Origin: Minisyncoccia bacterium
GTDB lineage: Bacteria; Patescibacteriota; Minisyncoccia; Phycocordibacterales; PALSA-1337
Length of the DNA: 64,000 bases
NCBI GenBank assembly: GCA_044228445.1
Contig: JBGAUV010000001.1
Location: forward strand, 15,827 to 79,826
Direction of reading: 5' to 3'
Of the stretch, positions 16,907 to 44,644 are shown in pieces. The position numbers were made by a program, and so were the translations under genes. The notes under the pieces are model-generated. The model did not search any database. It worked only from the letters and a program-made list of their open reading frames with translations, and was not told the DNA's origin. The stretch's first letter is position 1. Each line of letters starts with the position of its first letter.

Positions 16907-17287
16907 TTACATCATTTTTACATCGATATTAACTCCCCCAGGTAAACTAAGGTTTGTTAAAGCTTCAATGATTTTCTGATTTGGGTTTATTATATCTATA
17001 ATTCTCTTATGAACTCTCATTTCGAATTGTTCACGAGTATTCTTATATACGAATGCAGCTCTGTTTACTGTATATTTCTTAATTTCAGTAGGTAAAGGTA
17101 TAGGACCATAGAACTTCATATCGTATCTAATAGCTGTATCCATTATTTGCTTCAAAGAAGCATCAAGAATTTTGTGCTCATAAGCACGAACACGTATACG
17201 AAGTCTTGCTCCATCACCTTCAACTGGTGCTTTTGCAGTCTTTGGACGTGTTACTTTCTTTTTTACTTCTTTTGTAGCAGTAGTCAT
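16907..17287 (-). CDS. rpsJ: 30S ribosomal protein S10 (N-terminal extension)
   Basis: RIR.RA.....LD.....I...A......GPIPLPT S10 signature. Confidence 0.9.
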   Translation of the reverse strand: MTTATKEVKKKVTRPKTAKAPVEGDGARLRIRVRAYEHKILDASLKQIMDTAIRYDMKFYGPIPLPTEIKKYTVNRAAFVYKNTREQFEMRVHKRIIDIINPNQKIIEALTNLSLPGGVNIDVKMM

Positions 17288-18644: not shown

Positions 18645-21611
18645 TTATATACCGAATATTAGCTTGAAGGATTTAATTATTGAGGAATTAATTAATTCCA
18701 TATCATTATTTTCTATACCTAAAATATCAAATAGGGTCTTTTTATTTTCACTAGCAATTTTTGCTATATTAAATATGAATTGATTACTTTTTCCTTTTTC
18801 AGTTTCAATCGTAATTGGTATATCTTGTCCTACTGGATTATCGAAGATTACTAAATCTATTTCGATCTTATTTTGATCTTTTGTCTCTACATTTTTTAAT
18901 ACTCCATTTATACTAACTACATTTTTACCATTATTAAAGTTTATACCATTTATTATTAATTTATTTTTTTCTTGCACTATTGATAATATATATGGACTAA
19001 GTTCACCAACTATTACAAGAGGTTTGCCGATTTCTTGGTCTGATTTTTTTATTATATTTGAATAATTATTTTTTGAATCATACGCCCCCATTCCGCTAAA
19101 TGAGAAGCTGTACTGTCCTCTATATATACTTGTAGTTACCTCAGCATAAACATCAATTATTTTTTCTTCCCCTTTTTTCATAGCAAAGCCACTATTATTC
19201 TCCCCTTTGATTGGACCATAACCATAATAATTTTTACTCATACCCGGAACAAAATCTGGAACCAATCTAGTAGCAATTACATACAGATCCTTAACAACAA
19301 TATCTTCATACGCTTTTATTTTAACCTTAAAATCTAGTCTTATATTTTTCTCATTATTATTTCCATCGTATACAATCTTTGATGTAGAATTTGCAATATC
19401 TACAACTTCAGCAACACCAACAGTTTTATCTTTAAAATCACTTATTTCAAACTTATCACTAACTGAATTAATCTTTTTATTATCATTATTACTTACTCTA
19501 ATCTTATATATATCATTATCTATATTGTATGGAACTGCCCATCTAAATGTATGATTAGATATTTTTCCTGGATTTTCTACTACGGTATTTGATGATGTAA
19601 TTGTTTTTACTAAAGTTCTATTTCTAATATCATAAAGTTCAATTGACACATTACTAGAATTTCTTGATGACCATGTTATATCATAATTTTTAAACTTACT
19701 TATATCTCTATCAGAAAGCTGTACATCTTTTATAAGACTAACAGAGTTATCTACTATTTTACCTCTTGCATCATCTGACCCAGGAGTTGCAACAGTTGAA
19801 TTAACTAGACTAAGAATATTTGATTTATTTTCTTTTACTTTATATGAATTAAAACCATAACCAAAGTTTATCTTATCTATAACCGCATATACATTTCCAT
19901 TTATTGGTAATTCTTTTTGACTAGCCTCATCATAATATGTAGTGCCGGAATTAAATTCTGCACTGATAGTTATCGTTCTACCTTTTTTAAGTAAATAATA
20001 TGGTCCTGCATTTGGTTCAACCATATTTTGTATATCTGTAACAGTACCAATAGTTATAACTTTTCTACGTTCATCTATTATATTTTTATCATCAAAATAT
20101 AATTTAACAGTTAAGAAGCCATTTTTAGGTAAATTAATATCTTCTAGTGCTGTTAAGTTTATTTTAAAAGTCCCATGAATTTGAGGTGATTTCCAATTAG
20201 AATTATTGTATAAAATTATTTTTGGGTCATCTTTTATCTCTACAGATATATTTTTATCTTTTAGAATTATATTGCAGGAATTAAGAAATTTATTCATTTC
20301 AACATCTCTTTGAGTGTCTGAAGAATATATTGGTTTCATTTCAATCGGTATAAAGTTTTGTCCTAAAAAGTTTGCGAAATCCTTACTTAAATAATATTTT
20401 CTATACTCATTGAATGCTAGTTTCAAATATCTTTTCATATTTGTCTTATCCACATCAAATGGAAATTGATCTACCGCTAACTGCATTTTGTATAGATTAT
20501 TTATATCACCAAAAATCTCTCTGGTAGTATTATAGTATTGTTTTTTAATATTTGAATTGTTATTATCGTATGAATTTATCAAAACATCATCTATATAACT
20601 TGGTGAAATATATTTACAATCACTCATAGACATATCGAAACCATATGGTATTGCTTTCCATTTTTTAGTTGTTAAATCCATTCCATAATCTTCATTATGA
20701 AGCGTTGATCTATCTCCTATTTGCAAAAAATAGGTCAGTATTTTGTATTTAATCTGTGATTCAATATCCATATCAATATTTACAACTTTATTATTCTTTA
20801 CATCTTTATAACTTACAGTATATATGGAGTTTTTTTCGGTATAAGTTCCTACCCATTTATCAAATTTACCATCTTCAATTAAATTTTGATCGAGGTTAAA
20901 TTGTCTTGTAAAAGGAATTTGATCATCCTGTTCATTATCTCTTTGTAAAACAATATAGTTATATGTATTACCCTCATAACCTTTTGTTGGTGTCTTGATT
21001 TTTAAATTTGCAAAAGCTACAGGGTCAACACTTGGTACACCAAACAGTCTTAATATTTTATAAAATGAGTAGTCCATCAATTGAATATCAACTGTTTTAT
21101 TGAATCCAAAGTGATATTCATCATATAAAAAACCAGCAAAATCTAATAAATCACAATTAGAAACAAATCTCACCTTTTGATATTGCAATGTTTTATAACC
21201 TCCATATGTAGATAAACCACCGAACAATTCTTTAGGTTTGCCCTTACTATCAGTTTTATCAAAAGTGATATTAATCATAGGCGGCTGACAACTTGATCTA
21301 GCATGTCCCTTTTTTTCAAACTTTGTTTTCCATTTATTTATCTCTTTTCCTTTTGAATTGTATTCATATAACACAGAATCAGTATCTGTACTCCCGTCAG
21401 GGTTTACAATTTGTTCAACATCTTTATTTAATGTATCAAGAGTAAAGTTTCTAATTGGATACTTTATATCCTTATTAAGAGAACCGTCATTTATTTTGTT
21501 TTGTAAAAATAAATCATAACCATCTATTAAACCATCCTTATCCAAATCAACATTTTGAGCAAAAGAAATAATAGGAAAAATAAAAAACAAAACAAATAAG
21601 ATCTTTTTCAT
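18645..21611 (-). CDS. Very large (988 aa) secreted/surface protein with signal peptide and D-x-D-x-D-G calcium-binding-like motif near N-terminus
   Basis: MKKILFVLFFIFPIISFAQN signal peptide; DLDKDGLIDGYD motif; S/T/N-rich beta-type composition. Confidence 0.5.
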   Translation of the reverse strand: MKKILFVLFFIFPIISFAQNVDLDKDGLIDGYDLFLQNKINDGSLNKDIKYPIRNFTLDTLNKDVEQIVNPDGSTDTDSVLYEYNSKGKEINKWKTKFEKKGHARSSCQPPMINITFDKTDSKGKPKELFGGLSTYGGYKTLQYQKVRFVSNCDLLDFAGFLYDEYHFGFNKTVDIQLMDYSFYKILRLFGVPSVDPVAFANLKIKTPTKGYEGNTYNYIVLQRDNEQDDQIPFTRQFNLDQNLIEDGKFDKWVGTYTEKNSIYTVSYKDVKNNKVVNIDMDIESQIKYKILTYFLQIGDRSTLHNEDYGMDLTTKKWKAIPYGFDMSMSDCKYISPSYIDDVLINSYDNNNSNIKKQYYNTTREIFGDINNLYKMQLAVDQFPFDVDKTNMKRYLKLAFNEYRKYYLSKDFANFLGQNFIPIEMKPIYSSDTQRDVEMNKFLNSCNIILKDKNISVEIKDDPKIILYNNSNWKSPQIHGTFKINLTALEDINLPKNGFLTVKLYFDDKNIIDERRKVITIGTVTDIQNMVEPNAGPYYLLKKGRTITISAEFNSGTTYYDEASQKELPINGNVYAVIDKINFGYGFNSYKVKENKSNILSLVNSTVATPGSDDARGKIVDNSVSLIKDVQLSDRDISKFKNYDITWSSRNSSNVSIELYDIRNRTLVKTITSSNTVVENPGKISNHTFRWAVPYNIDNDIYKIRVSNNDNKKINSVSDKFEISDFKDKTVGVAEVVDIANSTSKIVYDGNNNEKNIRLDFKVKIKAYEDIVVKDLYVIATRLVPDFVPGMSKNYYGYGPIKGENNSGFAMKKGEEKIIDVYAEVTTSIYRGQYSFSFSGMGAYDSKNNYSNIIKKSDQEIGKPLVIVGELSPYILSIVQEKNKLIINGINFNNGKNVVSINGVLKNVETKDQNKIEIDLVIFDNPVGQDIPITIETEKGKSNQFIFNIAKIASENKKTLFDILGIENNDMELINSSIIKSFKLIFGI

Positions 21612-21657
21612 TTAAATATATTTATGAAATTTAATGATTATATTGTAACATGTTGTA

Positions 21658-22437
21658 ATGAAGAGATATTTCTTATTTATCCCCCATCTAATCATTTTGT
21701 TTATTATTTTGGTAATACTTGCCAATAGACTTGGTATTACAAATACAAAAGGAATTATCGATGAAACAAGTTCTTGTTATGAAAAAGGTGCATGTATAAA
21801 TACAGATTGGGAGAGGACTGAAGAATGGATCGTAGTAAAGAAAGCCTTGGTAAATGATTATGCGACTATAGCTAAAGTCTCAGAAATAACTAAAGTATCC
21901 CCAAAAATGATTATGGCAATAACCTCAGTAGAACAAATGCGTCTCTTTTTTGATGAAAGAGAAATATTTAAACTTGTATTTAAACCTTTAGGAAAACTCG
22001 GAATTCAAACGAATTTCTCTTGGGGAATAACTGGAATTAAAGAAAATACTGCGAGAAAAATTGAAAAAAACATAAAAGATAAGGATTCTATATTTTATCT
22101 AGGTAAAGATTTAGAAAATATACTAGATTTTCATACAAATAATATAGATAGCGAGAGATTTGATAGATTAACTGATAATAAAAGTAATTATTATTCGTAT
22201 TTATATACAGCTTTATTTATTAAACAAATTTATACTCAATGGGAAAAATCTGGATATAATATTAAAGATAAACCAGAGATACTTGGTACTTTATATAGTT
22301 TAGGATTTGAAAAATCTATTCCTAAGCTCAAACCCTTAGCAGGTGGATCAGTTATCAATATAAATGAAACTAAATATAGTTTCGGTGGACTTACCTATCA
22401 AATTTATAATAGTAAGAGTATTAATGAAATAAAATAA
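21658..22437 (+). CDS. N-terminally membrane-anchored hypothetical protein
   Basis: Single N-terminal TM (LFIPHLIILFIILVILA), soluble C-terminal domain, no recognised motif. Confidence 0.45.
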   Translation: MKRYFLFIPHLIILFIILVILANRLGITNTKGIIDETSSCYEKGACINTDWERTEEWIVVKKALVNDYATIAKVSEITKVSPKMIMAITSVEQMRLFFDEREIFKLVFKPLGKLGIQTNFSWGITGIKENTARKIEKNIKDKDSIFYLGKDLENILDFHTNNIDSERFDRLTDNKSNYYSYLYTALFIKQIYTQWEKSGYNIKDKPEILGTLYSLGFEKSIPKLKPLAGGSVININETKYSFGGLTYQIYNSKSINEIK

Positions 22438-22482
22438 AAACACCTACTTCAATCGGTGCTTTTATTTTAACTTTTTCAAATA

Positions 22483-23700
22483 TTATTTGAATATACCGAA
22501 TAGCAATTTCATAGAATCAATGACTGAACCGGTTAATAATGAAACGAAGCTGCCATTTTTTATATTAGAATTATCAACTTGTTCGACTAAAACTGTAGGT
22601 GTATACAATTTTTCCAAACCATTTGTAATTGAATATATTTCATTTATACCTCCAATATCAGTTAGAGATATTTTATTAATAGATATATTTCTATTGGCTC
22701 TTATTCCATCATTCTTCTTTATTATTCCATTTGTTGTAAACTTTCTATAACTTCCACTAGGAATTACAAATAATTCTGAACTATCTCCTGTTAGTGATGA
22801 TGGAATAGAATTTGTTGAAGAGAAAGTATAACTAGTACCAGGAGTAATATTTACACCAAAAGACTTACGTCCATTTTTACTTATATATACATCCTTATTA
22901 CTAATATTGTTTATTGTAAAATTAAAACTAAAACTTGCTGAGTCTGGAGACAAAGTACCGTTATCTACTGTTTGAATATTTGAACTCGCATCAGTTACAT
23001 AAGGTGTAGTTGATGATGCTAGAGTTATTGTTCCTGTAACAATAGATGAACTGGCTTCAACAGGAACTTGTCTATTCAAGCTATCAAAAGCCATTATAGA
23101 ATCATTACTTGGTGTAAGTCTCAAATATAGTTTTGTTCCATCTGGTACCCCAGGCTTTATATGTCCGTAAACAGAAACCTGTACAAAACTATCAATCGGT
23201 AAAGATTTATTCATATCAACTGACATGTGTAGTTGAGTTGTTGTAGTAGAATAATTATCAATTATTATGTCACTTAAAACTTCATTTGCTAGTTTTCCTC
23301 CTGAAGTTATGATATCAAACTTCAAATTTCTTAATGTAGAAGAAGTATTTTTTGATTTTATTTCAAAAATACCTAGATTTATTTGAGAACCAGGATTATA
23401 CAATACAGTTCTCGTCATAGGTGAAGCGGGAGATAATCTTGAATTAATTATTTTTGTCGAAGTACCAGTAATAACTGTACATGTATATCCTAGAGGACAA
23501 CCTACCGGCTGAATTGGTAATGGAGTACAAATATAGTTTATGGGACAGATAGGATTTGTTTGTGCTTTTACATCCTTATATCCAAATACTAAACCTAATA
23601 AAAATATTAGAAATAAAACAAATATTTTATGGGACTTTATATTCATAAATAAAAAAATTAATATTACAAAATAAATTATAGCACAATACACACATATCAT
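22483..23700 (-). CDS. Secreted protein with duplicated N-terminal CPxGYxC cysteine motif (paralogue of next gene)
   Basis: N-terminal TM/signal then CPINYICTPLPIQPVGCPLGYTC; S/T-rich remainder. Confidence 0.5.
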   Translation of the reverse strand: MICVYCAIIYFVILIFLFMNIKSHKIFVLFLIFLLGLVFGYKDVKAQTNPICPINYICTPLPIQPVGCPLGYTCTVITGTSTKIINSRLSPASPMTRTVLYNPGSQINLGIFEIKSKNTSSTLRNLKFDIITSGGKLANEVLSDIIIDNYSTTTTQLHMSVDMNKSLPIDSFVQVSVYGHIKPGVPDGTKLYLRLTPSNDSIMAFDSLNRQVPVEASSSIVTGTITLASSTTPYVTDASSNIQTVDNGTLSPDSASFSFNFTINNISNKDVYISKNGRKSFGVNITPGTSYTFSSTNSIPSSLTGDSSELFVIPSGSYRKFTTNGIIKKNDGIRANRNISINKISLTDIGGINEIYSITNGLEKLYTPTVLVEQVDNSNIKNGSFVSLLTGSVIDSMKLLFGIFK

Positions 23701-23739
23701 ATGTGTGTATTGTTGATATTAATTAAATTATTTATTTAA

Positions 23740-25161
23740 TTACATTATTAATGAAGCCAAAGTTATGACAGAGTCAAAAACTGAAGCAACATAATGCCAA
23801 CCATTATTTTTTGTTACTGGGGCGGATTGTGAAATTACATTAAACTTCACTGTATAAACATCATCTCCCCACCAAATAACATCATAATATCCAGTCTTTG
23901 CATCATTTGGAACTGTGAATGTTATAACTTCATTGTTTGAATTTGTATAATTTACAAAACCATAACTTCCGAAGTTAAAATCTCCTAGAGTTACTGGTGA
24001 CTTTTTTGGATTGTTCAAAGTCAAAGTAACTTTTGTTCCTGGAGCACCTGATGCAGGATAAATTGATTTTATTCCTGGGGCAACAACTACCGCTGGTTGT
24101 ACACTTGCATTGGTTACTGATCCTTGTGTATTGTTTTGAATATTAGATTCATTTAATACTGTTGGAGCTATAACTTTGAATGTTGGAGAGAATACTCTTA
24201 CATTTCCTATTTCAACACCGATTCTTAAATCAGTATTTGTAAGCATATAATCTTCTACTTTCCAATCATATGATCTCTTTGTAGGATCAATATAACCTGT
24301 TCTTAGTGCTCCATATATATTTGGATTAGATGGAGACTGGAATATCAAAGTGAATCTAGCACTTTCAGGAACACCTGAAGCATTCCAATATATTGTATAT
24401 GTCTCCCCTTTTGTAACTGAAGTATTTTCAGTTACTTGAACTCCTGATGTTTTATTTACTATTTTTACATCAGTTATATTTGCATTCGCATAATATAATG
24501 TTTTTTCTGCTACGGGTGGAGTTGGTGGTAACTTTGGTCCAACATTTGCATTTGCACCTGCTGGTACTCCAAGTGGCTTAATATTACCGATACCATTATT
24601 ACATCCATACAATTTATTTAATCTAGCGCGTGTCATAGGCCCAACAAAACCTGTTGTAGGAATTCCATTTTGTCTTTGGAATTTTTTTACAGCATCTTTT
24701 GTTGATATTCCAAACACTGGATTCTTCAATTCTCTCTCACTATTATTTATATCTATATTTTCTTTATCTTCCAAAAGAGTTTGTAGATTAAATAGTGCAA
24801 TACCAGAATCTTTTTCTATTGGTACACCTATGTCCATATTTCTAGGGTCAAGATCAAAGTTAAATGTATAACAATACTTTGGATCTAGTTTTGTTACACT
24901 ACTCTTAACTTCTTCTTTACCACTTGTTGTATCCTCAATTTTAAATGAAGGATTAACAGTTCTTGTTTCTATCTTTGAACATATATAGCCCGCAGGACAA
25001 CCAACTGGTTGTTCAACTATAGGTCTACATGTATATCCTGCTGGACAAGCAATAGCATTTGTATTTGTTTCTGCAAATACTTCCTTTACTTGTGGCAATG
25101 AATAAGCAGCCACTGTAAGAATGGCTACTGCAAGAATATGTTTTTGATGTTGATTTAACAT
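23740..25161 (-). CDS. Secreted protein with duplicated CPxGYxC motif and a putative peptidoglycan-binding (PG_binding_1-like) segment
   Basis: CPAGYTCRPIVEQPVGCPAGYICS after signal peptide; KDAVKKFQRQNGIPTTGFVGPMTRARL resembles PG_binding_1. Confidence 0.5.
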   Translation of the reverse strand: MLNQHQKHILAVAILTVAAYSLPQVKEVFAETNTNAIACPAGYTCRPIVEQPVGCPAGYICSKIETRTVNPSFKIEDTTSGKEEVKSSVTKLDPKYCYTFNFDLDPRNMDIGVPIEKDSGIALFNLQTLLEDKENIDINNSERELKNPVFGISTKDAVKKFQRQNGIPTTGFVGPMTRARLNKLYGCNNGIGNIKPLGVPAGANANVGPKLPPTPPVAEKTLYYANANITDVKIVNKTSGVQVTENTSVTKGETYTIYWNASGVPESARFTLIFQSPSNPNIYGALRTGYIDPTKRSYDWKVEDYMLTNTDLRIGVEIGNVRVFSPTFKVIAPTVLNESNIQNNTQGSVTNASVQPAVVVAPGIKSIYPASGAPGTKVTLTLNNPKKSPVTLGDFNFGSYGFVNYTNSNNEVITFTVPNDAKTGYYDVIWWGDDVYTVKFNVISQSAPVTKNNGWHYVASVFDSVITLASLIM

Positions 25162-25380
25162 AGTTTGTTAATAATTTTAATAATCGCACAATATTTACGA
25201 ACCTAATTTCAAACCTACTTTTAAAAGTTATTTGATATATGATCAAATATTCAAGTAGTTTATAAAAAGAAAAATCGAGCCAGTTTCCTGTGCCCGTTTT
25301 CGAGTAGTGTCTCTTGCTTATAAGAATACTACTTAATATTTTTCTTTGCAATTGTAGTTATCCACAATTGCTATTTTATA

Positions 25381-37766: not shown

Positions 37767-39254
37767 TTACTTAACCTCATCCCAAGATATTATTGAATAT
37801 TGATTTGAAGTTAAAGGAAAGCTTGGTGGTGGAGAATACAATAAGTTTGAATCATATATAATGTTTCTAGTTTGATAACCTGTACCATCAGTATAAGCAA
37901 AACCATATCTTTGATTTGTTGCTATCATTCCATATAGTGTAAGTGTATTTCTAATATCATAACCCTGACAACTTTGTCCTCCACTACCATTGTTTAAATA
38001 ATAATATCTTCCTGCTCTACCATTTTGAGCAACTAGAGCAGCATCTATCCTTAGAGTATCAGCGCTTCTTAACCCTGTATTTATATTATCTTGAGCGATT
38101 AGTGATATAACATCACTACCATCATAATTTGTATAAAGTAAGTTATTATTTATTGTAATACTTCTTCTTGTACTTACATTATCTGGGAATCTACCTGCTG
38201 CAATTGTTATTCTGGCTGTATTTATTTGTCCATCCACCCAAACATGATCTTCTACGAAAATTATTCCATTTGCTGGATTTGGATAGTTTCCAACTAAAGT
38301 TTCAGTATTTATTGACCAAGAACCCCAGTTTGGTTGACTTTGTGAATCAGTACATTTACTTCCCATAGAAACAAGGGTATTTACCTTATATACATCATAA
38401 GTATCATTTGTCTTTAGCTTTATGTGATAACCCTGTACACCTGAACTAGCTAGATATTTACCATTTGCTTGTGCTAAAGTCTTCATTTGAGATAAATCAG
38501 TAGTTAAACCGGTAAAATCAAAGGTCTGTATAGGAAATGTTCTTCCCGCCATGAAAACATCTGGTCTATTTGGAACAGCAGCTGGCGGACTAGGATCATC
38601 TGTACCTACAGTTGTATATACACCGAATCTATATGCACTACCATTGTCAGGATCGATATATTTATCTTTTGATGATGTAATAAGGTTATGAGCTAAACCA
38701 TCAAACCTTATACCGTTGTTTGAGTGTATAGGACCGAATACTTCAGTACCAGAACCAAATCTCATAATATCATTTGCTGCCACAGCATATTTTGCCAAAG
38801 ACGGTATAGCTAGAGTAACCTGTATAGTTCTACTTAATCCCGTTCCATCATTTACTGTACCTTTTGATTTTATCTTTACTACAGTTGATCCTGTAGGTGG
38901 TGGTGTAATGGTCAAAGCATAATTCCCTATAACATTACCATCTTTATCGTTAAAATTGTGTATAAATGGCCCGTTTGTTGTTGTAGCGTTTCCATCTTTA
39001 TAATCAGTCTGATTGTGGGCTAAATGCCACCTATAGTAGTCGATTCCTGCTTCAGCTATTTGTAAAGCTTGTTCCTTTGAAGTTAATCTTTTTGATGTCT
39101 TTAATATAGTCGAACCCCAGGTAATTAATGCAGAAGTTACAGTAATACCAATTACAGCAAAGACAAGTACATTCACCAAGACTAGACCCTTATCTCCCTT
39201 TTTATTAAAATAAGTTTTATTTTTATTCATTGGGCTTTTAAACAATATTTTCAT
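37767..39254 (-). CDS. Membrane-anchored protein co-located with pilins (possible pilus-associated/minor pilin-like)
   Basis: N-terminal hydrophobic segment (GLVLVNVLVFAVIGITV) without clear G-F-T-L-x-E prepilin motif; G/S/T/N-rich. Confidence 0.35.
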   Translation of the reverse strand: MKILFKSPMNKNKTYFNKKGDKGLVLVNVLVFAVIGITVTSALITWGSTILKTSKRLTSKEQALQIAEAGIDYYRWHLAHNQTDYKDGNATTTNGPFIHNFNDKDGNVIGNYALTITPPPTGSTVVKIKSKGTVNDGTGLSRTIQVTLAIPSLAKYAVAANDIMRFGSGTEVFGPIHSNNGIRFDGLAHNLITSSKDKYIDPDNGSAYRFGVYTTVGTDDPSPPAAVPNRPDVFMAGRTFPIQTFDFTGLTTDLSQMKTLAQANGKYLASSGVQGYHIKLKTNDTYDVYKVNTLVSMGSKCTDSQSQPNWGSWSINTETLVGNYPNPANGIIFVEDHVWVDGQINTARITIAAGRFPDNVSTRRSITINNNLLYTNYDGSDVISLIAQDNINTGLRSADTLRIDAALVAQNGRAGRYYYLNNGSGGQSCQGYDIRNTLTLYGMIATNQRYGFAYTDGTGYQTRNIIYDSNLLYSPPPSFPLTSNQYSIISWDEVK

Positions 39255-39257
39255 ATA

Positions 39258-39863
39258 TTATAGATTATCTTTTAAATTTCTAAGAGTTGCAGTAGAAGTA
39301 TATAGCCTTGGAATTGGCGATCTATTTGGATCAGCGTCAATAAGAAGATTTGTTCTAATTAATCTAATTGAAGTGATATTTACTGGGTAAGTAAGTGGTG
39401 ATGAAGTCCCTGCATAGTTAGTATCATAATATTCAAATAATGGTGTGGTGCTAGAATTTTTTAGATTATAGGCTAGAGTTGTAATAACTTCAGATGCTGG
39501 ATTATATACTGGAGGATTTCCAGTTGATGCAATTACTCCCTTTTTCAAAACATTACCAGTTAAAAAATATCTGACCTGCTCCATCTTTGTATCACCATCA
39601 ATATCACTAAAGAAAGTCAACGTACTTGTTGCAACTGAACTTATAGGATAAGCTCCATTACCACTTGGAGACATTGATCTCATTTCTTTAACCATAGTTG
39701 CTATAATAGCTCTTGAATCTTGAGCACTCTCTATTACATCCTTTGTATATTTATTAAATCTAAATATATTTGTTTGGAAAGTCGCCACAGCAATAGATAT
39801 TAAAACTATCATTCCAAGTGCAACCATTGTCTCTATTAAAGTAAATCCTTTATTTTTTTTCAT
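39258..39863 (-). CDS. Type IV pilin-like protein with prepilin cleavage/methylation N-terminus
   Basis: MKKNKGFTLIETMVALGMIVLI matches G|FTLIE prepilin class III signal. Confidence 0.65.
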   Translation of the reverse strand: MKKNKGFTLIETMVALGMIVLISIAVATFQTNIFRFNKYTKDVIESAQDSRAIIATMVKEMRSMSPSGNGAYPISSVATSTLTFFSDIDGDTKMEQVRYFLTGNVLKKGVIASTGNPPVYNPASEVITTLAYNLKNSSTTPLFEYYDTNYAGTSSPLTYPVNITSIRLIRTNLLIDADPNRSPIPRLYTSTATLRNLKDNL

Positions 39864-39864
39864 T

Positions 39865-41682
39865 CTACTTTGTTAATATTACTGTTTGCTCTTGCCAACT
39901 TGAACTTACATTTGAAACATTTGTTGTTGTTGGATAATCATTTCTAGAAGTTGTGATTGTATAACTACCTGTAGATAAGCCCTTAAATATAACTTGTCCT
40001 GGAGGAGTACAGTCTGAAGTATATGTAAAGTATATATCAGAAAGATTTGGTGTAAAACTATTATCTAGTGTTGATAAATATATTTTATATCTAACATATC
40101 TATCTCCATTATGAACTGTATTTATATTAGTATCAGAAGCTGTGTAGTAAGTATTTGAAGTTCCATCAGGGCCCTTGTACACCCAAGTTGTTGAAGCATT
40201 TATTATAGAATTTGTAGCAAACTGAATTCTTAAACTTGTTGTACCTGTTTGTATAGGCTGATCAGTTGGTGTCCAGAATACTTTATGGAAATTACTAATT
40301 GATCCGAGATCAATAATAGATGATTCCATTTCACTAGTTGAAGCAAAACTTCCTGATGTATTTTTTAGTTTAAGTTCCCCACTTGGTGAAGATATTTCCA
40401 AATTACCATCATCATAAAAATAACTTAATTCATCACTAAAATTAACTTGCCCACTACCATTTGACCAATCAGTTTGATTGAAATATCCCCTATCAGTTAT
40501 TTGTGTATACTCGAAATCATCACCGTCACTTATTTTTACAGTTGCTCCAGTAACTGGTAAACCTGTAACACTATCTTTTACTGTTACCAAAAGACTCTTT
40601 GGAGTTTTTGGCCCACCAATTATCATTACAGTTTCTGTACTATTTGGAGTAATCTCATTTGGACTTAAAGGATTTAAACCATATATATCATAACTCGAAT
40701 CAGTTCCCATAATACTGTATGTATCCCATTCTATATTTGTATTATTATATAATCCTGAACTATTTGTAGTTAAAGCACTTGAAAACTTTGGTATATTAAC
40801 ACCCTTTGTCTTTGCACCGGTCATCGTAAAATTAAAATCAGGTAAAACTACACAAGTAGGTCCAACACTTTTTATAGTTAAATTTGAGACTCTATCTATA
40901 ACAAAACTTATTTGAGTAACTTGTTGAACAAGAACAGTTGCATTTGGTTTTGTTGGATTTAAGTTTGTTGTGCTAGTTGCATATGTCTTATCAGTTGAAT
41001 AGCCATTTTTACTTACTGTAATTTCATAAGCTTCTATACCAGGAGGTGCATCAACTATAGCCAACATTCCATTTATATTTGTAACATCATCAATTATGAT
41101 ATTTGGACTGACTTTTGCATTTACCACATGAACATCTGCATCTGATACAGGTACGCCATTTGCATCAAAAACTTTTATAAAAAGTGCTCCATTGGTACTT
41201 GCTGTTTCAAGATTTTTTGGTGCTATTGTGGTCGTTAATGTAATAGGTAAATATCCTTTACATGTATCACATTCAACTTCAACTTCTACAAGTTTATTAT
41301 CAGCGGGTGATAAATCATTTAGATTTCCTCCAAGAGTTCCGTCGTATGGTAAATCAATATTTCTTATTGTAGTTATAACATTAAAAGTAATACCTCCTCT
41401 TACAAACTGTTGTGTATGTGGAATTTTTCCTTTTGGTATACCAGAAACTTCTCCAACATCTGAATAAGGTAAATTTCTTATTATTTCAAATTGTTCATTT
41501 GCAAGACTAATTGCCAAAATCTTATACTGGCTGGCTGAAGCAACTGAAAATAGACTTACATAAACCTGATACAGTGCAATAGATATAGTTAAAAATACAG
41601 CAATTCCCACCAAAGTCTCAACCATAGTAAAACCTTTTTTAAATAACTTTATATTTTTAGAAATTAAATTATATAAATACAT
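39865..41682 (-). CDS. Giant (605 aa) prepilin-type protein (major or minor pilin-like)
   Basis: KKGFTMVETLVGIAVFL prepilin N-terminus; long T/S/N-rich beta-type C-terminal region. Confidence 0.6.
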   Translation of the reverse strand: MYLYNLISKNIKLFKKGFTMVETLVGIAVFLTISIALYQVYVSLFSVASASQYKILAISLANEQFEIIRNLPYSDVGEVSGIPKGKIPHTQQFVRGGITFNVITTIRNIDLPYDGTLGGNLNDLSPADNKLVEVEVECDTCKGYLPITLTTTIAPKNLETASTNGALFIKVFDANGVPVSDADVHVVNAKVSPNIIIDDVTNINGMLAIVDAPPGIEAYEITVSKNGYSTDKTYATSTTNLNPTKPNATVLVQQVTQISFVIDRVSNLTIKSVGPTCVVLPDFNFTMTGAKTKGVNIPKFSSALTTNSSGLYNNTNIEWDTYSIMGTDSSYDIYGLNPLSPNEITPNSTETVMIIGGPKTPKSLLVTVKDSVTGLPVTGATVKISDGDDFEYTQITDRGYFNQTDWSNGSGQVNFSDELSYFYDDGNLEISSPSGELKLKNTSGSFASTSEMESSIIDLGSISNFHKVFWTPTDQPIQTGTTSLRIQFATNSIINASTTWVYKGPDGTSNTYYTASDTNINTVHNGDRYVRYKIYLSTLDNSFTPNLSDIYFTYTSDCTPPGQVIFKGLSTGSYTITTSRNDYPTTTNVSNVSSSWQEQTVILTK

Positions 41683-42894
41683 TTATATTGCATTTACTAG
41701 TGAATACATAGGTGAAATCATTGCAATTGCAAAGAATCCAACTCCGACAGCTATAAAAACCATAAGTACTGGTTCAATTATTGTAGACATATCTTTTGTT
41801 CTTTGATCAACATCCTCTTCATAATAAACCGCTACCCCCAAAAGCATTTCACCTATTTTTCCAGTCTCTTCCCCAACTTCAATCATTTCGCTAAAAAATG
41901 ATGGGTAGAGCTTTTCATTACTATGAAAAACTTTTGAAATCAAATCTCCTTTCTCAACCGCTTGAGCTGATTGTTCTATAACTTTTTTGTAATGAACATT
42001 TTGTACAATATCTTTTGTAATACGTAGAGCTTCTAAGACATCTACCCCGGAAGTAATTAGAGAAGACATTGATCTTGCTGTTCTTGCACTATTTACCTCT
42101 TTTACTAGATTTCCAATAACTGGAATTTTAATAATTATATAGTGCAATATATTTTTTCCATTTAAACTTTTTGACCAAAAATATGCAAGACAACCTAGTA
42201 TAACAATTACAATTAGAATAAATATACCATTATTTATAATCATATCACTTATAAATAGAACAATTTTTGTTGGTGTAGGTAATGCTAAATTTAATTCTTT
42301 AAATGTTTTCATCAATGTTGGAACAATATAGGTAAGCATTATTATTCCTATAATTACCATCGCTGCAAGAACTACTGAAGGATACATGAGTGCTCCTTTA
42401 ATTCTCTTTTGTAATTGATAACTTTTCTCCATTTGAGTAGACACAACCTTAAGTGCTTCAGCTAACATTCCACTCTGTTCACCTGCCTTAACCATAGATA
42501 TAACTAAAGGAGAAAACATATTTTTATACATTTCCATTGATTCACTGAGTGTTTTTCCTGAAGATATTTCATCTCTCAAACTGCCTATAATTTTTTTAAC
42601 CTTTTTATTCTTATTCTGATTCTCCATTACTGACAATGCTCTTGATATGGCAAGACCAGCAGAAATCATGGATCCAAGATTTTTTGAAAAAGTAATCTTA
42701 TCCATCATTTTAATGGAATTAAAGAAATTAAAACTTATATTAAAAGAAAATCCTCCGCTCTTTTCTTTTACTGAAATTGCTTCATCTCCTGATTCTTTTA
42801 GCATTTTATACAAATCAAAACGATCTTTTGCATCACGCTCACCTTTATATATTTCACCATTGCTTCTTTTTGCTTTAAAAACAAATGTGGACAT
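41683..42894 (-). CDS. pilC: Type IV pilus / type II secretion platform protein PilC/GspF
   Basis: Two GspF-type repeats, 3 TM, 403 aa. Confidence 0.85.
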   Translation of the reverse strand: MSTFVFKAKRSNGEIYKGERDAKDRFDLYKMLKESGDEAISVKEKSGGFSFNISFNFFNSIKMMDKITFSKNLGSMISAGLAISRALSVMENQNKNKKVKKIIGSLRDEISSGKTLSESMEMYKNMFSPLVISMVKAGEQSGMLAEALKVVSTQMEKSYQLQKRIKGALMYPSVVLAAMVIIGIIMLTYIVPTLMKTFKELNLALPTPTKIVLFISDMIINNGIFILIVIVILGCLAYFWSKSLNGKNILHYIIIKIPVIGNLVKEVNSARTARSMSSLITSGVDVLEALRITKDIVQNVHYKKVIEQSAQAVEKGDLISKVFHSNEKLYPSFFSEMIEVGEETGKIGEMLLGVAVYYEEDVDQRTKDMSTIIEPVLMVFIAVGVGFFAIAMISPMYSLVNAI

Positions 42895-42895
42895 T

Positions 42896-44644
42896 TTATT
42901 CTGAAATTACTCTTAGAACTTCTTCAATTGTCGTTTGACCTTGAACTGATTTGAATATTCCATCTTCTATCATTGTAAGCATTCCCTCTTTTTTTGCTTG
43001 ATCCTCTATTTGACCTGCTGTTGCTCCTTTCATAATAAGATCCTTTATCGTCGGGCTCACCTTTAGAACTTCATGTATACCAATACGACTCTTATATCCA
43101 TCATCTTCTTTTCCAGGAACAGCTTTCCAAAAATTAATCTTATCCCAAGTATCTCCAGGCTTAACTACCTTTTCAGCTTTTAATACTTCTAGCACTCTCT
43201 TTAGATCAACAACTTTCTCTAAGTTTGCTAATTCTGCTTTTGATAAATAGTATTTTTCTTTTGTATCAGACAATCTTCTAACTAGTCTTTGAGCAATTAC
43301 AATATTTATAGTTGAAACTAGTAGGAATGATTCTATTTTCATATCCATAAGACGAGGAATAGCTCCAGCAGAACTATTGGTGTGTAATGTTGATAGAACC
43401 AAGTGTCCTGTTAGAGAAGCATTTACTGCTAGAGATGCTGTTTCATTATCTCTTATTTCCCCCACCATTATTATGTCTGGGTCTTGTCTAACTAGTGTTC
43501 TAAGTCCAGAAGCAAATGTAAAACCAATATCAGGATTTACTTGAGTCTGGTTTATTCTTTTCATTTGATACTCAACAGGATCTTCAATAGTTGAAATATT
43601 TACATCAGGTTTATTTAAAATATCCAGAATTGTATACAAAGTTGTGGTCTTACCGGAACCAGTTGGTCCTGTAGTTAGAATCATTCCTGTTGTTTGATTT
43701 GTAGCATGATGTATTCTATCCAATCCTTCTCCATGAAAACCAAGATGTTCTAATGTAAAACCAGAAACATTTTCACGAAGCAAACGCATAACAGTTTTTT
43801 CACCGTAATAAGTTGGTAGTATGGATACACGGAAAGACACTTTTTCATTATTCATATCAACCTTAAATCTTCCATCTTGTGGCAACCTTTTTTCATCTAG
43901 TTTTAAGTTAGAAAGAACTTTTATACGAGCAGTTATAGAAGATTCAGCATGTTTTGGAAGAATCATTGCATCATGTAAAAGTCCATCAATTCTATATCTA
44001 ACTAGCAATTCTGCTTCCATAGGTTCAATATGAATATCAGAAGCATCTTGTATAATTGCATGCTTTAAAAGTGTGTCCACTATACGAATAACAGGTAAGT
44101 TTTCTGCTATCTTTTTTAAATCCTCTTCACTTGTAGAACCACCTGCATCTTCAGCAATAGTCTTTAGAGTTGCTGATTCCTTTTGAATAATATCTCCGAA
44201 TTCAGCTTTCAAACTCTTTTGATATTGAATAATTGCGCTCTTTATTGATTCAGCATCAGTAAGTCTAGGTAAAATCTTCAATTTTACTTTCTTTTTTACG
44301 AAATCAATTGCTGAAAGATCGTCAACATCAAGCATAGCAACTTCTAAACTATCATCAGTCTTTTTAAAGCCTATAATATTGTGATTTCTAGCTACTGGCT
44401 CAGGAATCATAGATAGAGTATCAAAAGGAATTTTTCTAGATTTTAAATCTACGAAAGGAATACCGAGAACATAGGCCTGCATTCTTCTCAAATTATCCTC
44501 AGTAATCTTTCCATTATTTACAAGTATTTCAGCAGCTTTAACACCTTTTTCTTCAGCTTCTTTTATAGCCTTATCAAGATCAGTTTTGGAAACTAGATTG
44601 GAATCCAAAATAAATTTATTGAGCTGTGTCTCTGGAACGAACAT
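42896..44644 (-). CDS. pilB: Type IV pilus assembly ATPase PilB/GspE
   Basis: Walker A GPTGSGKTTTLY, Asp box, His box; N-terminal GspE_N domain. Confidence 0.9.
   Translation of the reverse strand: MFVPETQLNKFILDSNLVSKTDLDKAIKEAEEKGVKAAEILVNNGKITEDNLRRMQAYVLGIPFVDLKSRKIPFDTLSMIPEPVARNHNIIGFKKTDDSLEVAMLDVDDLSAIDFVKKKVKLKILPRLTDAESIKSAIIQYQKSLKAEFGDIIQKESATLKTIAEDAGGSTSEEDLKKIAENLPVIRIVDTLLKHAIIQDASDIHIEPMEAELLVRYRIDGLLHDAMILPKHAESSITARIKVLSNLKLDEKRLPQDGRFKVDMNNEKVSFRVSILPTYYGEKTVMRLLRENVSGFTLEHLGFHGEGLDRIHHATNQTTGMILTTGPTGSGKTTTLYTILDILNKPDVNISTIEDPVEYQMKRINQTQVNPDIGFTFASGLRTLVRQDPDIIMVGEIRDNETASLAVNASLTGHLVLSTLHTNSSAGAIPRLMDMKIESFLLVSTINIVIAQRLVRRLSDTKEKYYLSKAELANLEKVVDLKRVLEVLKAEKVVKPGDTWDKINFWKAVPGKEDDGYKSRIGIHEVLKVSPTIKDLIMKGATAGQIEDQAKKEGMLTMIEDGIFKSVQGQTTIEEVLRVISE

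Follow-up and report, generated by a model that had tools for sequence, protein, structure and literature searches.

We analysed a 64-kb stretch of DNA from a Minisyncoccia bacterium (Paceibacterota, with a tiny genome; contig JBGAUV010000001.1; the whole stretch is referred to below as 'the window') in which the translation genes fusA and tuf are separated by four non-ribosomal genes, here named A, B, C and D in fusA-to-tuf order. It is well supported that these genes form a variable locus of envelope genes that has long stood at the boundary between two operons, with rpsL-rpsG-fusA on one side and tuf-S10 on the other. We also favour, on balance and by a modest measure, a fuller explanation: the variable locus would sit in the spacer between two transcription units, A, B and D would be held at the cell surface, C would remodel the wall, and D would carry a CotH-type head. 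Open reading frames (ORFs) and Pfam matches gave the following minus-strand order, interrupted by C on the opposite strand (all coordinates are positions in the window).

28517–28098, minus strand: rpsL, in the upstream 'str' transcription unit (28517–25381); ORFs and Pfam
28068–27598, minus strand: rpsG, in the upstream 'str' unit; ORFs and Pfam
27525–25381, minus strand: fusA, in the upstream 'str' unit; ORFs and Pfam
25161–23740, minus strand: gene A, 473 aa
23700–22483, minus strand: gene B as the long ORF; likely 387 aa from M19 (23646–22483)
21658–22437, plus strand: gene C, 259 aa
21611–18645, minus strand: gene D, 988 aa
18481–17297, minus strand: tuf, the start of the downstream tuf-S10 unit
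17287–16907, minus strand: rpsJ, in the downstream tuf-S10 unit, after which the other S10 genes follow

The distance between fusA and tuf is 6.9 kb, and the four-gene stretch spans 6.5 kb. An earlier note on this DNA, made from its letters, had described four non-ribosomal genes between fusA and a tuf that abuts rpsJ, and both the ORF map and independent assemblies bear this out. The identical sequence is present on a Logan contig of SRR28480390, and orthologous layouts, with D proteins 83% and 74% identical, were found in Joint Genome Institute (JGI) datasets 3300045372 and 3300045333 and in SRR23702518 and SRR12901044/45. Because at least five independent assemblies share the layout fusA-A-B-C-D-tuf, the arrangement is not an assembly artefact, and we rejected an assembly chimera. 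Orthologues of D (73–97% identical) lie without exception at the fusA-tuf site, and the exact four-gene set is restricted to a narrow clade.

To place the locus among its relatives, fusA and its 10-kb flanks were taken from the 80 best-matching species representatives, and tuf and the island genes were located in them; 65 loci were informative. The nearest named genomes are Candidatus Paceibacterota of the Taylorbacteria, Zambryskibacteria and Nomurabacteria types. The fusA-tuf distances were distributed as follows.

under 300 bp: 8 of 65 loci
300–1000 bp: 23 of 65 loci
1–3 kb: 10 of 65 loci
over 3 kb: 13 of 65 loci
no tuf within 3 kb or more: 11 of 65 loci

At least 1 kb lies between fusA and tuf, or tuf is not nearby, in 34 of the 65 informative Paceibacterota representatives. 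The earlier note had started from a conserved fusA-tuf link, a premise that fails in this phylum now that the synteny comparison has been run, since only the eight loci in the first line keep the two genes within 300 bp. From these gap sizes it follows that the split is normal for the phylum and that the content is the variable part. We found no relevant literature on ribosomal gene order in Parcubacteria.

The fusA-tuf spacer in Paceibacterota tolerates additional genes, which have entered and left it repeatedly. Among its varied cargo are toxin-antitoxin-like pairs, an ABC transporter and enzymes of several kinds. In near relatives it consists mostly of Sec-exported, wall-associated proteins; the closest of them (L010, L011, L017, L021 and L068) carry secreted proteins with PG_binding_1, fn3, TIG or Kre9_KNH domains. 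The gaps of L012, L018 and L048 hold small pairs with RelB/DinJ-like N-termini that look like toxin-antitoxin genes, as judged by sequence appearance only. The rpsG-fusA junction is also split, by 1–7 kb, in many relatives (L031, L036, L037, L048, L058, L089 and others).

The relatives show that the locus grew stepwise, from A to A+B to A+B+C+D. The order is fusA-A-tuf in L091 (EF-G, elongation factor G, 97% identical), fusA-A-B-tuf in L089 (EF-G 97.5% identical) and fusA-A-B-C-D-tuf in the window's genus. In L091 and L089, A is only 51–52% identical to its counterpart in the window, and B 35%. Gene C has a wider distribution. In four of seven sampled contexts (the window clade, L093, L098 and L099), across which EF-G is 77–91% identical, it occupies the fusA-tuf gap on the opposite strand, and in each of the four it adjoins a large protein with a signal peptide and a tail-like end. 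In the other contexts C comes after mreB, is two genes away from murB or lacks informative neighbours; the proximity to mreB and murB fits a wall-related role. The spacers around the antisense gene C in the window are 45–46 nt each (21612–21657 and 22438–22482), and L093, L098 and L099 have the same orientation. Since C stands antisense between close same-strand genes, transcription from B to D and transcription of C must overlap or interfere.

We next consider selection and mobility. The ratios of nonsynonymous to synonymous substitution rates (dN/dS), computed against L003 and L005 (for tuf against L003 only), were 0.04 and 0.02 for fusA, 0.02 for tuf, 0.13–0.14 for A, 0.20–0.24 for B, 0.12–0.23 for C and 0.18 for D. 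A to D are real genes under purifying selection that evolve 5–10 times faster than fusA and tuf. For the closest pair (the window and L003), dS was 0.13 for fusA, 0.17 for C, 0.18 for B, 0.33 for A and 0.50 for D, an uneven pattern that may point to an exchange of alleles at A and D.

That the four genes are a recently acquired mobile genomic island or a prophage remnant is very improbable. The GC content of the island (28.4%) is indeed below that of the flanking translation genes (34–35%), and an IS605 OrfB (TnpB-like) gene stands between rpsG and fusA in L089. However, other non-ribosomal parts of the window range from 25 to 32%, and because the island falls inside this range we gave no weight to its GC as evidence of transfer. 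Between 17000 and 28600 we detected no gene for an integrase or transposase, no tRNA and no convincing repeats, direct or inverted, at the flanks, and PHROG and PADLOC searches returned nothing beyond a peptidoglycan-binding domain. The orthologous content is, moreover, nested across relatives. The single inserted island of the earlier note therefore gives way to a series of partial sets: A alone in L091, A+B in L089, and C with other large secreted proteins in L093, L098 and L099. The site is comparable to core-gene hot spots for accessory or surface-antigen genes, with which it shares fixed flanks (fusA and tuf), species-variable cargo, nested gain and loss, evolution faster than that of the flanks and uneven dS. 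It is unlike them in that its flanks are normally adjacent members of a highly conserved bacterial gene string, in that mobile-element machinery is lacking, and in that a resident gene, C, recurs at the site in distant relatives.

The four genes are bordered by elements that could delimit transcription units, and a further hairpin separates A from B.

25258–25374, minus strand: 117-nt non-coding element directly 3' of the fusA stop codon, found by conservation and folding
23683–23713, minus strand: hairpin between A and B with a perfect 14-bp stem, then GCTATAAT and a T-rich tract, from a scan for terminator-like hairpins
18625–18596, minus strand: tuf promoter TTGACT, 18 nt, TGcTACTAT (extended -10), from a promoter scan
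18595–18482, minus strand: conserved tuf leader, about 115 nt, with the hairpin ACGCAUUUUUCUUUGCGU

The tuf promoter and leader are conserved whichever gene is upstream, be it D, B, A or another. In 22 of 53 relatives a similar promoter was found in the 250 nt before tuf; the control rate was 2%. The leader matched no Rfam family. Given the terminator-like element after fusA and tuf's own promoter, the four genes lie between two transcription units and not inside one. As in the str operon of E. coli and B. subtilis, rpsL-rpsG-fusA are contiguous and tuf is directly followed by rpsJ and the S10 genes; unlike that operon (rpsL-rpsG-fusA-tufA), the window has fusA and tuf 6.9 kb apart with a terminator-like element and a dedicated tuf promoter between them, an arrangement that is not that of a co-transcribed str operon. 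The A-B hairpin is kept in L003 and L005, and L089 has a different hairpin at the same place. The initial 18 codons of the longer B ORF are the translation of a conserved hairpin; the most probable start of B is M19 (23646), which gives 387 aa and agrees with the gene calls of other assemblies.

These observations bear on the view put forward in the earlier note, in which the four genes are a host-attachment adhesin module that was inserted as a unit into the str/S10 operon and rides on the high expression of translation genes. The 'highly expressed context' is doubtful in view of the terminator-like element behind fusA and of tuf's separate, conserved promoter and leader. The gene set accreted stepwise and not as a unit, and C is antisense inside the gene series. 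We return to the evidence in favour of an adhesin module below, with the proteins.

The 117-nt element is 91–99% identical at the nucleotide level in L003, L005, L089 and L091, where the third codon positions of fusA are 70–92% identical. Its minimum free energy has a z-score of -6.66 relative to shuffles, and the consensus fold has 40 pairs in three hairpins, the third terminator-like and followed by the U-run AUUUUUCUUUUU. The element is confined to the clade that carries gene A. It had no Rfam match at gathering or permissive thresholds (best sub-threshold E 0.2–5), and only tRNAs pass the gathering score in the window. A covariance model of the element run over about 1 Mb of related loci recovered the five seed sequences only, and a scan of JGI metagenomes with exact 20-mers gave one further L089-type copy and one chance match, so that no extra sequences became available for a covariation test. 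The element could serve fusA as a terminator or 3' untranslated region, act as a leader for gene A, or be a small RNA. A 108-aa ORF with a TTG start (25025–25351) overlaps both the conserved element and the start of gene A and was taken as spurious.

Within this element lies, just as previously described, a perfect DnaA box, TTATCCACA (25358–25366), inside the inverted repeat GCAATTGT/ACAATTGC (25348–25371). The repeat coincides with hairpin 1 of the predicted fold (25348–25371), and the box occupies parts of its loop and stem. Two substitutions in the arms in relatives, both A to G, keep the pairing only as G·U on the fusA-sense strand, and an RNA reading is therefore favoured over a DNA palindrome. 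It is extremely improbable that the box is a DnaA-controlled site, either a replication origin or a regulator of the island, even though the perfect box is conserved in five relatives and the window holds four such boxes against 0.77 expected from shuffles. The four are scattered (20446, 25358, 55490 and 58571) and do not form the cluster of a replication origin: here the box is single, with the other three 5–33 kb away. Neither dnaA nor dnaN turned up among the listed ORFs of the window, at which no domain search for these genes was aimed. The whole 117-nt block is as conserved as the box, and the arm substitutions preserve pairing only as RNA of the sense strand. The box is thus better read as part of an RNA hairpin.

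Turning to the proteins, we judged export signals solely by our own heuristic check of hydrophobicity and small-x-small sites. A and B have the following features.

A, aa 39–61, nt 25047–24979, minus strand: two copies of CPxGYxC
A, aa 148–181, nt 24720–24619, minus strand: PG_binding_1 domain (Pfam, E=1.1e-8)
A, minus strand: Kre9/KNH-like immunoglobulin (Ig)-like domain (Pfam), then a beta domain
A, aa 455–473, nt 23799–23743, minus strand: C-terminal tail
B, aa 34–56, nt 23547–23479, minus strand: two copies of CPxGYxC
B, aa 369–387, nt 22542–22486, minus strand: C-terminal tail

By this heuristic, A, B and D each have an n-region, a hydrophobic core of 12–15 residues with a mean hydropathy of 2.5–3.3, and a predicted cleavage site (VFA before E, VKA before Q and SFA before Q, respectively). 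The predicted cut in A falls after ILAVAILTVAAYSLPQVKEVFA and before E, and that in B between MNIKSHKIFVLFLIFLLGLVFGYKDVKA and Q. None of the three predicted signal peptides has a lipobox Cys. The identification of the genes as non-ribosomal and coding for exported or envelope proteins is therefore supported, as far as a heuristic check of export signals goes. Orthologues of A at the fusA-tuf site are 51–92% identical. An exhaustive HMMER search showed that the body of B consists of two beta domains of about 130 aa that recur in many multi-domain proteins. A and B had been called two paralogous secreted proteins, and this holds for their ends: they are similar over the N-terminal ~60 aa, which comprise the signal peptide and the double CPxGYxC (BLASTP E=1e-9), and in the C-terminal tail. 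It does not hold for their middle parts, between which BLASTP detected no similarity. The double motif, CPxGYxC-x8-9-CPxGYxC directly after the signal peptide, is common among related secreted proteins (P0146-P0243); it is sometimes repeated internally and often followed by a PG_binding_1 domain.

The tail is what A and B have in common with D. A ends in VASVFDSVITLASLIM, B in GSVIDSMKLLFGIFK and D in NSSIIKSFKLIFGI, which follow approximately the pattern [ST][AS]S[IV]W[DN]A[IV]xx[WLF]F, often with basic last residues. Many homologues that differ widely in length and architecture end in this motif, without gaps (P0005-P0017, P0157-P0241). Counted as a simple pattern within the last 26 residues, it was present in 11 of 19 D-family proteins, 21 of 89 B-type representatives and 3 of 15 A-family proteins (with a Thr variant in two more), and in only one of 120 C-family proteins; the internal match rate was about 0.001–0.003. 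A hidden Markov model of the tail, run over the 1,523 proteins of the sampled ribosomal neighbourhoods, found it in the island families only, and its wider spread rests on database homologues. No Pfam or NCBIfam model covers the tail, and we found no paper on it, or on a sorting signal in Patescibacteria, in the literature searched.

We read the tail as a putative common retention or sorting element. Like LPXTG/sortase, PEP-CTERM/exosortase and GlyGly-CTERM signals, the C-terminal domain of the type IX secretion system and the amphipathic C-terminal anchors of low-mass penicillin-binding proteins, it is a short conserved motif at the extreme C-terminus of unrelated exported proteins. Unlike those sorting signals, it has no hydrophobic stretch of transmembrane length and no NCBIfam or Pfam signature, and no candidate sorting enzyme was identified. 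AlphaFold2 (AF2) draws the tail as a helix with low confidence, a shape closer to an in-plane amphipathic helix.

D is the largest of the four proteins and has the following parts.

aa 1–18, minus strand: signal peptide, MKKILFVLFFIFPIISFA with cleavage before Q (heuristic)
aa 22–33, minus strand: dockerin-like Ca loop with the DxDxDG motif DLDKDGLIDGYD
aa ~50–450, nt 21464–20262, minus strand: CotH-kinase-like domain (AF2 and Foldseek)
aa ~455–950, nt 20249–18762, minus strand: Ig-like array (AF2)
aa 968–988, nt 18710–18648, minus strand: C-terminal tail helix (AF2)

The AF2 model of D has a predicted local distance difference test (pLDDT) score mostly of 80–95 over aa 30–450. Its best Foldseek matches in the PDB are 5jd9 and 5jda, the CotH kinase of B. 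cereus (E 2.1e-9 and 4.5e-9; probability 1.0), with template modelling (TM) scores of 0.53–0.57 normalised to the target, and the fold of the model is the atypical protein-kinase fold known from CotH. When PDB sequences were searched with D by sequence and by profile, CotH did not appear among the results, which were noise only. Pfam CotH is matched by 3 of 19 D-family members (best E=9.4e-5), and for one homologue the NCBI name is CotH kinase family protein. Pfam Dockerin_1 is likewise matched by 3 of 19 members, in keeping with the loop DLDKDGLIDGYD; the Ca-binding-like DxDxDG motif reported earlier for the 988-aa protein is indeed present. Homologues of the D family at ~30% identity also occur elsewhere in the chromosome. 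We found no relevant literature on CotH in Patescibacteria.

The resemblance to the Bacillus CotH spore-coat Ser/Thr kinase (PF08757) extends over the N-terminal ~400 aa of D. K101, D300, N306 and D326 are invariant in the 19 D-family members and have a kinase-like spacing. This constant set of one Lys, an Asp...Asn pair and a further Asp is comparable to D228 and D251 of B. subtilis CotH, both of which are needed for activity (PMC7821199). What sets D apart from CotH is its signal peptide, dockerin-like loop, Ig-like stalk and C-terminal tail, and its organism, unlike Bacillus, does not form spores. A putative kinase activity of D outside the cell would need a source of ATP.

What speaks for an adhesin module is the make-up of the proteins: large size, predicted export, Ig-like domains, a dockerin-like loop and a head of the CotH type. 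In Mucorales, members of the CotH family serve as invasins, and bacteria of this group are thought to live attached to other cells. A putative role in host attachment would be plausible for such a way of life. The points on transcription, strand and stepwise growth given above nevertheless leave an adhesin module inserted as a unit an unlikely explanation.

C differs from the other three in its strand and in its probable place in the cell.

aa 5–24, nt 21670–21729, plus strand: N-terminal membrane anchor, a hydrophobic helix
E92 at nt 21931–21933, plus strand: invariant residue of a lysozyme-like (DUF1402-type) domain

The hydrophobic helix has no cleavage site of the signal-peptidase type and therefore looks like a signal anchor. 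The C family comprises 183 homologues of 42–50% identity across Paceibacterota. The AF2 model of C (pLDDT 90.8) has a predicted lysozyme-like, alpha-helical fold: all of the top 50 PDB fold matches are lysozyme-like, with MltE at a probability of 0.96. Pfam DUF1402 (PF07182) is matched by 38 of 49 aligned homologues (best E=4e-7) and SLT_2 by 3 of 49, and two homologues carry a precomputed DUF1402 tag. E92 sits inside a helix and not at a helix end. Sequence and profile searches of C against PDB sequences returned noise only. We know of no activity for DUF1402, and no mention of it was found in the literature searched.

Among known enzymes we compared C with the specialised lytic transglycosylases and muramidases of glycoside hydrolase family 23 (GH23), such as MltE, Slt, MltF, Tse3 and phiKZ gp144; the C model matches lysozyme-like structures only. 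By our own reading of the alignment, the family consensus sequences FSWGVMGIK and YYSYLY resemble SLT motifs of GH23. Like the GH23 enzymes of pilus, flagellum and secretion loci, C is encoded amid large exported proteins that it may serve. It differs from them in its N-terminal transmembrane anchor and in points of the fold and the candidate catalytic Glu that are taken up below.

The conservation of C invites another explanation, namely a housekeeping module for wall growth, with C as a core peptidoglycan hydrolase and A, B and D as structural wall proteins that have no role in cell interaction. The C family is kept at 42–50% identity across the phylum, C adjoins mreB or lies near murB in some genomes, and A has a peptidoglycan-binding domain. 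On the other hand, A, B and D are restricted to a few closely related lineages and change quickly (the identity of A is down to 51% in genomes whose EF-G is 97% identical), and relatives swap them for unrelated cargo. We regard a housekeeping module as distinctly unlikely.

In the explanation that we prefer, a variable envelope locus between two transcription units, A, B and D would be exported through Sec and retained at the surface by the peptidoglycan-binding domain of A and by the common amphipathic tail. C would be an outward-facing, membrane-anchored, lysozyme-like enzyme that cuts or remodels peptidoglycan locally so that large proteins can cross or settle in the wall, a role resembling that of specialised lytic transglycosylases encoded beside pili, flagella and secretion systems. 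D would carry, on top of its Ig-like stalk, a CotH-type head that works as a kinase or in binding, and may act on proteins of the surface or of partner cells.

Several points weigh against this explanation. The signal peptides of A, B and D were called by heuristics only. D988 itself has no Pfam CotH (PF08757) match at E<=0.1, and its invariant residues are only candidate counterparts of D228 and D251 of CotH. The fold matches of C have weak E-values (0.28–2), C259 itself matches neither DUF1402 nor SLT in Pfam (E<=0.1), and the invariant E92, the candidate catalytic Glu, is followed by Q93 (VEQLR) in place of the usual Ser. C is absent from all 80 species-representative fusA loci, and its functional link to tail-bearing proteins rests on co-location in four loci. 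As for the boundaries, the functions of the terminator and promoter are read from sequence and conservation only, and the relatives' alignment shows no compensatory double changes in the element after fusA, so its structure is not proven.

A broader proposal would be a Paceibacterota surface-protein system that comprises the common tail, the double CPxGYxC and the genes of the fusA-tuf spacer, with a C-family enzyme for insertion or attachment, the tail as a novel signal for sorting or anchoring and the clade-specific, structured post-fusA RNA regulating entry to the locus. We consider it possible but doubtful, and no such system was found described in Pfam, NCBIfam or the literature searched. 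With A to D, folds already known gain new members. For the tail, the double-Cys module and the RNA element, which we regard as leads, we found no description in Pfam, NCBIfam, Rfam or the literature searched.

The comparison shows that the fusA-tuf link, usually held to be near-universal, is loose across a phylum and that the site collects fast-evolving envelope genes, a point that bears on synteny-based annotation and on binning checks that use blocks of ribosomal genes. No new principle is involved, and the functions are those that we infer. These are uncultured organisms whose surfaces are largely uncharted, and several specific candidates emerge from the locus: a secreted kinase of the CotH type with an Ig-like stalk, a recurring tail that possibly marks the surface proteome, and a conserved lysozyme-like membrane protein that would give DUF1402 its first functional context.

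Two further features of the window were observed. The S10 protein (16907–17287) has 126 aa, with a Lys/Thr-rich N-terminal extension of ~25 residues that is shared with close relatives. A type IV pilus-like cluster on the minus strand (37767–44644), judged from N-terminal sequences only, appears to encode a PilB-like ATPase, a PilC-like membrane protein and three proteins with prepilin-type N-termini (KGFTLIE, KGFTMVE).

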